From the NCBI GenBank assembly GCA_964106915.2, contig OZ066918.1: a stretch of 64,000 nt of DNA; one strand, written 5' to 3'. The notes below the pieces were generated by a model, which ran no database searches, was not told where the DNA came from, and saw only the letters and a list, made by a program, of their open reading frames with translations. Of the stretch, positions 36,709-38,801 are shown one piece after another; within the stretch, counting starts at the first letter, position 1; each line of letters starts with the position of its first letter. A program made the position numbers and the translations under genes. Origin of the DNA: Podarcis gaigeae. Its lineage: Eukaryota.

Positions 36709-37116
36709 TGTAATGGGAAAAGGGGGCTGCTCCTGCGTAAGCGTTTAAAGCCTCCAAGCTTTACCATCAGTTCCTAAACTTTCCCAGTCCGAGGAGCCAT
36801 GGGTGTGTAGCTACCTCAATCGCTGGCAGAATCCGTCAGTGGGCGTTTCCGGAATTTACTCCAACATAAGAGTTCCTTGACGGAAACTCTTCGGGATTCT
36901 CTGCGTGACAGTTTCCTCCGTGGAGTGGGCGTCCCCAGCGGAGGTCCTGAGCCCTCCCCGCTATTCTCACTGGAAACATCTTGGAGCCCTTCCTCCGATT
37001 GAGTTTCTGCAGGAACTCTCCCTCTCCCCCTACTGGTTCCTTCCTCCGCATCCGAGGCTCTCCTAGCCTCCTTGAGCCCTTCCGCCACCTGACTCTCCGA
37101 TGGCAGTTCCCTGACA
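36709..37116 (-). repeat. 3' LTR (408 bp)
   Basis: Direct repeat of 41804-42214, immediately preceded on the sense strand by a purine tract. Confidence 0.96.
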
Positions 37117-38801
37117 TCCACCTCCCCTCCAGGACCCCCCTCACCCTCCGTTTCCCCCTCTTCTCTGGGTGGTGAGGCTGGGAACCCTCGGAAGGAATCC
37201 TCCTCATCTTCGGTGGACTCGAAAACCGCTCTCCACCTACTACTGTCCCTTCTTCCCCCATACTCTTCCCCACCTGATTCTTCTTCCTCTTCCTGTCCTG
37301 ATTCTGGGAACCCCTCGAACTCCTCTTCCTCATCAGTGGTGCCGAAGTGTTCCTCCCAGAACCTAGCCAAGGGCTGGGGCTTCCTTGGGAACCGGCGATG
37401 AAATGTTTCTACTAAGACCTCATCCTTGACCATTTCTGCTGGTAACCAGGTATTTTCGGACTCCGGTTCCCCTTCCCATGCCACTAGGTACTCCACCTGT
37501 CTCCCCTTCCACCGAGAGTCGAGAATTTCTGCTACATGACTGCTCCGCTCCCTCTCTTCTACTTGCGGTGCCGCAGTAACCTCACTTTCGCGTTCCCCAA
37601 ATTCTCGCCCCTCCCTGTATGGTGATAGTAATGACCTATGGAATACTGGATGCAGTTTCATGTTGTCTGGCAGCCTGAGTTTAAAGGCCACCGTATTGAC
37701 CTGCTGTATAACCTCAAAGGGTCCCAGTCGTTTTGGCCGCAATTTTTTGCAACCCCCTTTGAACAGTAACCCTTGTGTTGACAACCACATCCGGTCCCCC
37801 ACCCTTATGGTCTCTCCTTCCCTTCTGCTCCTATCTGCCTGCTTCTTGTATTCTGCCTTGGCCCTATCCAAATTCATTTTGAGCTGTTGGTGTATTGCTT
37901 CCATTTCTTCCACAAAATGTTCCGCTGCTGGTACGCTCCATCTTTCCCCCCCTTCCTCTGGAAAGGCCCTGGGGTGACACCCATAATTAGCCAAAAACGG
38001 ACTCATGCCCGTGGACACATTTTCCGCGTTATTGTACGCGAATTCAGCCAGGGCTAATTTCTCTACCCAATCATTCTCCCTGTCATTTACATAACACCTC
38101 AGATATTGTTGCAGAATACTGTTTGCCCTTTCCGCCTGCCCATTTGTTTCTGGGTGTCTGGCGGTTGAGAAATTGACCTCCACGTGCAGTAAGCTCATGA
38201 GCTTCCTCCAGAACCTGGACGTAAATTGTTTCCCTCGATCTGTAACCACCCTCAAGGGGGCGCCATGCAACCTAAAAACGTGTTTTACAAACAACCTGGC
38301 GGTTTCTTCTGCCGTTACCACATGTGAGCAAGCTATAAAGTGGCACATCTTGGTTAACAGGTCTACCACTACCATTACCGCAGTTTTCCCCTTGGATCTT
38401 GGTAAATCCATCATAAAATCTATGGAAACTGCCTCCCATGGCCGTTCAGGTGTGGGTAATGGTTCCAGCAACCCCGCTGGTGCCGCCCTTTCCCCCTTTG
38501 CTCGCTGGCAGTGGTCGCACCCCCTTACATACTCTCGTACATCTTCCCTCACCTTGGGCCACCAGAATTGCCTGGTAAGTAACCACATTGTTTTGTGTTG
38601 CCCAAAGTGCCCCGCGGTGGGGCTGTCGTGCAGTTGTTTGAGTACCCTACCCCTCAATTCCCCTTCTGGTATGTACAAGGCCCCCTTGTAGTACAACGCC
38701 CCGTTCTTTTCTTCAAAACCCCCGGTGATCTCCCCGGCTCTCCTGAGCCCTCTGAGCTTCTCTTGGGCGTATTCATCGTTCTCTGTCCCTTCTACTAGTT
38801 C
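36816..38801 (-). CDS. pol: Pol C-terminal part: integrase (HHCC, DDE, GPF), chromodomain and a long acidic/basic tail running into the 3' LTR
   Basis: In frame with the upstream Pol ORF across TGA 38802-38804; LHDSPTAGH...CDHC, SIDF, VTDRG, QAERAN, LGPFEV; chromodomain VAEILDSRWKGRQVEYLVAWEGEPESENTW; stop at 36816 lies inside the LTR. Confidence 0.95.
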   Translation of the reverse strand, partial: ELVEGTENDEYAQEKLRGLRRAGEITGGFEEKNGALYYKGALYIPEGELRGRVLKQLHDSPTAGHFGQHKTMWLLTRQFWWPKVREDVREYVRGCDHCQRAKGERAAPAGLLEPLPTPERPWEAVSIDFMMDLPRSKGKTAVMVVVDLLTKMCHFIACSHVVTAEETARLFVKHVFRLHGAPLRVVTDRGKQFTSRFWRKLMSLLHVEVNFSTARHPETNGQAERANSILQQYLRCYVNDRENDWVEKLALAEFAYNNAENVSTGMSPFLANYGCHPRAFPEEGGERWSVPAAEHFVEEMEAIHQQLKMNLDRAKAEYKKQADRSRREGETIRVGDRMWLSTQGLLFKGGCKKLRPKRLGPFEVIQQVNTVAFKLRLPDNMKLHPVFHRSLLSPYREGREFGERESEVTAAPQVEERERSSHVAEILDSRWKGRQVEYLVAWEGEPESENTWLPAEMVKDEVLVETFHRRFPRKPQPLARFWEEHFGTTDEEEEFEGFPESGQEEEEESGGEEYGGRRDSSRWRAVFESTEDEEDSFRGFPASPPREEGETEGEGGPGGEVDVRELPSESQVAEGLKEARRASDAEEGTSRGRGRVPAETQSEEGLQDVSSENSGEGSGPPLGTPTPRRKLSRRESRRVSVKELLCWSKFRKRPLTDSASD
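37117..37131 (-). promoter_or_regulatory. Polypurine tract
   Basis: Sense TGGAGGGGAGGTGGA directly abuts the TGTCAG start of the 3' LTR. Confidence 0.85.

Follow-up and report, generated by a model that had tools for sequence, protein, structure and literature searches.

A 64,000-nucleotide window of Podarcis gaigeae DNA (contig OZ066918.1) contains an LTR retrotransposon whose Pol reading frame does not stop before the 3′ LTR but continues across the polypurine tract (PPT) and through U3. This locus raises the question of whether U3 is protein-coding here and, if so, what the encoded tail of the integrase might do. Since site choice by vertebrate LTR retrotransposons is poorly known, the answer is of wider interest: the analysis names a candidate host factor, LEDGF/HRP2, and two 20-residue motifs that may engage it.

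A Pol frame that ends inside the 3′ LTR

The element is a 5.5-kb Ty3/gypsy chromovirus located on the minus strand of the window (all element coordinates below are window positions on that strand) and flanked by the target-site duplication ATACC (36704-36708 and 42215-42219). It has a 5′ LTR of 411 nt (42214-41804) and a 3′ LTR of 408 nt (37116-36709), both bounded by TG..CA, a gag gene (40748-41758) with Pfam matches to Retrotrans_gag and a zinc knuckle, and a pol gene (36816-40814) in which Pfam recognized the protease, RT, RNase H, integrase zinc finger, rve, SH3, and Chromo. The PR-RT-RH-IN order, the C-terminal chromodomain, the LTRs, the PPT, and the target-site duplication identify it as a Ty3/gypsy chromovirus. 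The window copy is dead: gag is broken by an in-frame stop codon at 41434-41432 and pol by another at 38804-38802. Its primer-binding site (PBS; 41791-41801) is complementary to nt 280-290 of the LTR and is of the self-priming type; both sites were readable in 49 of 120 long loci examined, and in 43 of these they were fully complementary, a compensatory swap (27 vs. 15) distinguishing subfamilies. The element is a lizard Tf1/sushi-type chromovirus, an assignment that the self-priming PBS fits and for which the tree was built from the SH3 and chromodomain of the hits only (46 rows, without named reference elements).

The final open stretch of Pol (38801-36816; 661 aa) has its chromodomain at aa 423-470 according to Pfam (37392-37535), and 191 codons remain after it. 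They cross the PPT (37117-37130), translated as GGEVD, whose Asp codon straddles the LTR edge. A further 99 whole codons (36819-37115) then run inside the LTR and through the 11-nt self-primer and predicted 5′ end of the transcript (36830-36840), which encodes LTD, to a stop codon at 36816-36818, 22 nt beyond the predicted transcription start. The U3 frame is open in the 5′ LTR as well. A sequence-only reading of this DNA had described the same course of the frame, with about 190 codons past the chromodomain, about 99 LTR codons, the GGEVD and LTD translations, and an open 5′ LTR frame, and every one of its coordinates holds, including the stop at 36816.

No host exon was found around the window copy, a Pfam search with the 150 longest of the 207 ORFs outside the element having given no match. 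Two families of short dispersed repeats were seen in the window, the first at 7101-7442, 8449-8807, 31124-31491, and 52616-52951, which we take to resemble the squamate Sauria SINE, and the second at 11159-11394, 13219-13431, 28058-28304, 35050-35293, and 56570-56819.

Openness of the frame by chance

Read-through in a single copy is weak evidence of coding. In a Markov model, the 99-codon frame in U3 was open by chance with P = 0.07 for the given frame and P = 0.19 for any frame, and a second frame of the window copy is also open for 93 LTR codons. These values are compatible with a reading in which a T-poor, GA-rich U3 leaves the frame open as a by-product and promoter constraint accounts for its conservation; the self-primer nucleotides, frozen for DNA or RNA reasons, point the same way. 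The second long frame (36836-37408) was rejected as a gene, having a dN/dS of 1.65 and extra stops in subfamilies B and C4.

Ten substitutions and a single 3-nt gap separate the two LTRs of the window copy. The sequence-only reading had taken the triplet length of this single indel as support for coding. The gap is indeed present, but its bases were kept in 29 of 29 other copies, indicating a private deletion in the 3′ LTR of the window copy, and we dropped it as coding evidence.

Purifying selection on the U3-encoded tail

We compared genome copies, of which 150 among 12,656 candidates were scored (73-100% identical). The tail was open in 64 of 90 loci examined, 58 of which were used in nine subfamily groups, the six ungrouped loci being omitted. 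Net between-group dN/dS was obtained by pairwise counting minus within-group divergence (kappa 3). Most copies in this set were selected for open frames, the groups were delimited by eye among subfamilies that recombine, and only codons were resampled for the intervals. The net dN/dS was 0.07 in the integrase core and 0.15 in the chromodomain; the tail gave 0.22 before the PPT, and U3 gave 0.29 (0.19-0.44). Within U3, the acidic half gave 0.45 (0.25-0.73) and the basic end (aa 199-244) 0.13 (0.05-0.26), and dN/dS rose to 1.65 and 2.17 when the frame was shifted. Shared variants fell on codon positions 1, 2, and 3 in 32, 26, and 63 cases, respectively, and the third-position excess was also seen at the basic end (14, 5, and 33).

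Length variation was likewise structured around the Pol frame. Of 130 loci examined, 86 had all anchors; in 69 of these, 301 nt separated the LTR start from the stop, and in 9 the distance was 319 nt, with other lengths occurring as singletons, so that the shared lengths differ by triplets only. The distance from the stop to the LTR end varied freely, with 106, 107, 108, and 110 nt all common. In a tail-independent sample of 40 copies, found by an SH3 and chromodomain search that yielded family 1 only, 18 had an unbroken frame down to the same stop; scattered stops, frameshifts, or truncations were seen in the rest.

The conserved Pro/basic end (36840-36956) contains a predicted amphipathic helix and an invariant Cys (LLCW). 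Across 94 copies, the KELLCW codons varied synonymously and the synonymous sites of the self-primer were nearly frozen. Because its codons vary in this way, the constraint at KELLCW is on the protein, and the possibility that LLCW is merely a DNA element at the TATA position was ruled out.

Together, these results indicate that U3 is, almost certainly, coding sequence under purifying selection, as the sequence-only reading had proposed. The two outcomes that it had set against its own proposal, a stop before the PPT and neutral decay of U3, did not appear. The by-product explanation is already contradicted by the selection, length, and KELLCW results, namely the third-position excess at the basic end, the low dN/dS confined to the Pol frame, the triplet-only shared length changes, and the synonymous variation within KELLCW, and we regard it as very improbable.

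Two further features of the copies were noted. Single-nucleotide losses in the G-runs before the PPT recurred in different subfamilies (L018, L030, L165, L168, and L184) and are homopolymer slips or assembly errors. Three loci (L104, L120, and L209) look like tandem or nested arrangements of related elements.

FxGF motifs and an altered chromodomain cage

Upstream of the PPT, within the range covered by the sequence-only reading but missed by it, the tail contains two TIM/IBM-like FxGF motifs. Each consists of a hydrophobic-x3-F stretch, an acidic S/T linker of 8-9 residues, and FxGF: motif 1 (37308-37370) has a predicted helix, an 8-residue acidic S/T linker, and FEGF, and motif 2 (37182-37235) has W-x3-F, a 9-residue acidic S/T linker, and FRGF. 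In the accessible text of PMC9987994, a TIM is described as a short helix followed by an acidic S/T linker of 8-16 aa, often CK2-phosphorylated, and an optional FxGF, and the consensus is given as D/ExExFxGF in the available portions of PMC8022399 and as S/ExFxGF in those of PMC7337902. Motif 1 is a full match to D/ExExFxGF, and motif 2 has D in place of the second E. Both linkers fit the 8-16-residue range and contain S/T-x-x-D/E sites, the CK2 consensus.

The two motifs contain seven of the eight phenylalanines of the tail, including the one that opens the motif-1 helix, and two FxGF occurrences arose in a shuffled tail with P = 0.0004. Among 190 loci examined, FxGF was kept at motif 1 in 161 of 168 readable loci and at motif 2 in 134 of 147. 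An alignment of 36 sequences, from families 33-45% identical, showed near-invariant aromatic and Gly positions, and the helix-linker-FxGF spacing is kept exactly, twice. Exceptions were also found: three named Podarcis proteins have a degenerate motif 1, with L or M replacing the first F, P0126 has no motif 1, and family 2 has a single motif whose linker is S/T-rich and non-acidic. In a structure model, the chromodomain is folded and the tail is of low confidence, its helices lying at 61-69 (motif 1), 106-108 (motif 2; only three residues, in a low-confidence region), and 224-234. The tail is predicted to be disordered, in agreement with the sequence-only reading, and to form a short helix in its basic end. 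A PDB sequence search with the motif region returned nothing at E ≤ 10, as expected for short motifs.

To place the motifs among relatives, we took the best 150 of 9,532 database representatives, 146 of which had a chromodomain and 108 a tail of at least 20 residues. FxGF occurred in 6 of these 108 tails (0.86 expected), 5 of them in one clade, which the FxGF elements formed with a support of 1.0 and a long stem in the SH3 and chromodomain tree (46 rows). The chromodomains of this clade are all alike: of the three aromatic residues that form the cage in HP1, only the Trp is retained, the first Tyr being replaced by Ser and the last Tyr by Glu. The three-residue aromatic cage of a type I chromodomain, the H3K9me reader, is therefore not present in the window element. 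All three cage residues were kept in 111 of 126 readable hits. Most database relatives retain the cage, and many have an AT-hook-like PRGRP tail instead. This PRGRP follows directly after the chromodomain in many chromovirus hits (e.g., P0137, P0142, P0164, and P0180), and such hits seem to read on through a G-rich PPT.

LEDGF-family genes, including a PSIP1 exon, are present in the host, and the IBD of lizard LEDGF corresponds to residues 402-487 of P0007. The PSIP1 exon and the named relatives of the element indicate a lacertid-like lizard. According to the accessible text of PMC9987994, FxGF is found in all known LEDGF/HRP2 partners and is essential for them. We consider that the two FxGF motifs probably bind LEDGF or HRP2.

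LTR-encoded tails in other families

Similar tails were found in other families. Family 2, found via P0004, has a 760-nt LTR with 210 codons inside it and a U3 dN/dS of 0.39 (0.29-0.54; 17 copies). At 60 loci, LTRs were ~365 nt long in family 3, enclosing 71-83 codons, and ~435 nt long in family F, enclosing ~109 codons. In families 2, 3, and F, Pol passes into the LTR in the same phase and terminates close to the predicted start of the transcript. Every family examined has a frame that continues over the PPT and U3, with 71-210 LTR codons in the related families.

The solo LTR that lies ~240 nt upstream of the element (42457-43098, minus strand; 642 nt, target-site duplication AATTG) belongs to a separate chromovirus lineage. 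In all eight elements examined from the neighbour family, which were chosen by protein similarity and are 95-99% identical, the Pol frame enters the 3′ LTR in the same phase and continues there for 117 codons. The tail of this family is acidic, then basic, and ends near RRSARL; the chromodomain cage is intact and FxGF is absent. Since LTR-encoded tails occur in families 2, 3, and F and in this neighbour lineage, they are common among the chromoviruses of this lizard, and because the neighbour family combines the overlap with an intact cage and no FxGF, the U3 overlap and the FxGF motifs are separate traits. By the selection statistics, nearly the full length of U3 codes for protein in several vertebrate chromovirus families.

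Whatever the length of U3, the Pol stop was located near the predicted transcript start in all families (the 36834-36846 region of the window and its equivalents): at about −1 to +36 nt in the FxGF families and at −39 nt in the neighbour family. Separately, the Rhineura floridana protein P0175, sister to the neighbour family in the tree, has a cage-intact chromodomain followed by an acidic-then-basic tail resembling that of the neighbour family, which suggests that the LTR-encoded tail may occur more widely in squamates.

Genomic distribution of copies and alternative roles of the tail

Copies are unevenly distributed. Contig C32 (29.5 Mb), which makes up 2% of the large contigs, holds 58 of 150 family-1 rows and also has many equal-scoring family-2 rows at 24.7-27.4 Mb; we infer that it may be a W chromosome or another heterochromatic contig. 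When C32, small contigs, and two tandem duplicates were omitted, 21 of 51 family-2 copies, 9 of 21 older family-1 copies, and 8 of 68 young family-1 copies lay within 2 Mb of contig ends (5% expected). Family-2 and older family-1 copies clustered near the ends of large contigs, at both ends. The distribution looks more like heterochromatin accumulation than gene-body targeting, and post-insertion purging could explain it.

The enrichment near contig ends bears on the possibility that the U3-encoded basic end is itself the targeting domain, directing the element to heterochromatin or chromosome ends as the CR motif of plant CRM elements does, with FxGF having another or a secondary function. 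The basic end is the most constrained part of U3 (dN/dS 0.13, with the invariant Cys), it is present in all families, including the FxGF-less neighbour family, whose RRSARL is the core of the HMGN acidic-patch motif RRSARLSA (PMC12487698, accessible text), and plant CRM elements offer a precedent. However, the basic end of the window element has no RRSARL, young family-1 copies are only weakly enriched near contig ends (8/68), and the duplicated, conserved FxGF motifs and their coincidence with cage loss would be left unexplained. We consider this explanation unlikely.

The lack of gene-body targeting in the distribution would also suit FxGF motifs that bind a TND protein for nuclear retention, integrase protection, or provirus transcription, or that are generic acidic-aromatic patches. 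TIMs engage many TND proteins of transcription elongation, as described in the accessible text of PMC9987994. On the other hand, the helix-linker-FxGF spacing is conserved exactly and twice, FxGF is described in the same source as specific to LEDGF/HRP2 partners, and integrase tails are established targeting modules, as in Ty1 (PMC7459421, available portions). Such roles appear improbable, still more so than targeting by the basic end.

A candidate chromatin tether

We favor a model in which the protein-conserved tail, predicted to be disordered and half of it LTR-encoded, likely tethers the integration complex to chromatin through the two candidate LEDGF/HRP2-binding motifs. From LTR biology, U3 can be translated at the 3′ end of the genomic RNA because it is present there, and the 5′ LTR copy of U3 is assumed to serve as promoter. 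In the model, the linkers would be phosphorylated in CK2 style and the FxGF motifs would then bind LEDGF or HRP2 at the TND/IBD. The PWWP domain of these proteins reads H3K36me2/3, so the integration complex would dock on H3K36-methylated chromatin, and this would replace the reading of H3K9me by the ancestral chromodomain. The acidic middle of the tail would be a spacer of free length, and the U3-encoded basic end would provide nuclear import or a contact with nucleosomes or DNA; the NLS or nucleosome-binding role that the sequence-only reading had proposed for the tail is plausible.

That FxGF-LEDGF/HRP2 docking in fact steers integration is possible, at slightly less than even chance. We hold equally tentatively that this clade may have exchanged an H3K9me cage for tandem mimics of the LEDGF/HRP2 motif, converging on the HIV tether, with U3 as the gene for a chromatin-binding tail that varies between families (HMGN-like RRSARL in the neighbour family).

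Comparison with known systems

The sequence-only reading had regarded LTR-overlapping ORFs as known mainly from retroviruses, and this premise of novelty is wrong because plant chromoviruses already have the layout. In all CRM group A elements, Pol extends into the 3′ LTR, where the CR targeting motif is encoded (PMC3059260; PMC3605345), and several Bingo families of Beta vulgaris likewise reach into the LTR (PMC3605345), as described in the available portions of these sources. As in CRM group A, the Pol ORF of the lizard element crosses the PPT and places a putatively targeting integrase C terminus in the 3′ LTR. Unlike CRM elements as described there, which are tRNA-Met primed and in which the CR motif replaces the chromodomain, the lizard element is self-priming, belongs to a vertebrate lineage, and keeps its chromodomain before the PPT; its ORF takes in practically the whole of U3, and a CR motif is not evident. 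It is CRM-like in layout but not a member of CRM. A literature search short of most subscription papers and of Repbase/GyDB, and so not proof of absence, found no report of a vertebrate chromovirus ORF in an LTR, the layout being described only for plant chromoviruses, and no published retrotransposon with a TIM, IBM, or FxGF motif. The LTR overlap is a vertebrate variant of the plant CRM layout, and TIM mimicry is possibly the new part.

With the Tf1/Sushi V-clade, as set out in the accessible text of PMC6317226, the element shares the PR-RT-RH-IN-chromodomain order, self-priming PBS, TG..CA LTRs, and 5-bp target-site duplication, and it differs from that clade in the lost cage, the added tail of 191 aa, and the two FxGF motifs. 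In Ty1, a short motif within the disordered tail of the integrase contacts a host factor and determines the insertion site (PMC7459421, available portions); the C-terminal bipartite NLS/targeting domain of that integrase belongs to another superfamily, involves another host factor, and is not LTR-encoded.

The closest likeness of the motifs is to the TIM/IBM of MLL1, JPO2, IWS1, PogZ, ASK, and DPF3a, with which they share the 8-9-residue acidic S/T linker, FxGF, the tandem arrangement, and the disordered setting, along with a hydrophobic helix that is only predicted here (PMC9987994; PMC8022399; PMC7337902), and P0004 of family 2 shares STFHGFD with the DPF3a peptide of PMC7337902, as far as the accessible texts of these sources describe them. 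Unlike these cellular partners, the candidate motifs sit in a retrotransposon integrase. Lentiviral integrase binds LEDGF through its folded domains, whereas the lizard element would use a linear mimic of the motif of the cellular partners. Because its motifs resemble the cellular LEDGF docking signal, the element likely uses the host tether of HIV by another route. The proposed tether and its consequence are those of lentiviral integrase (PMC9987994, accessible text), and if the motifs bind, the element would have acquired the lentiviral tether independently, through mimicry of a linear motif, and this would coincide with the loss of the chromodomain cage.
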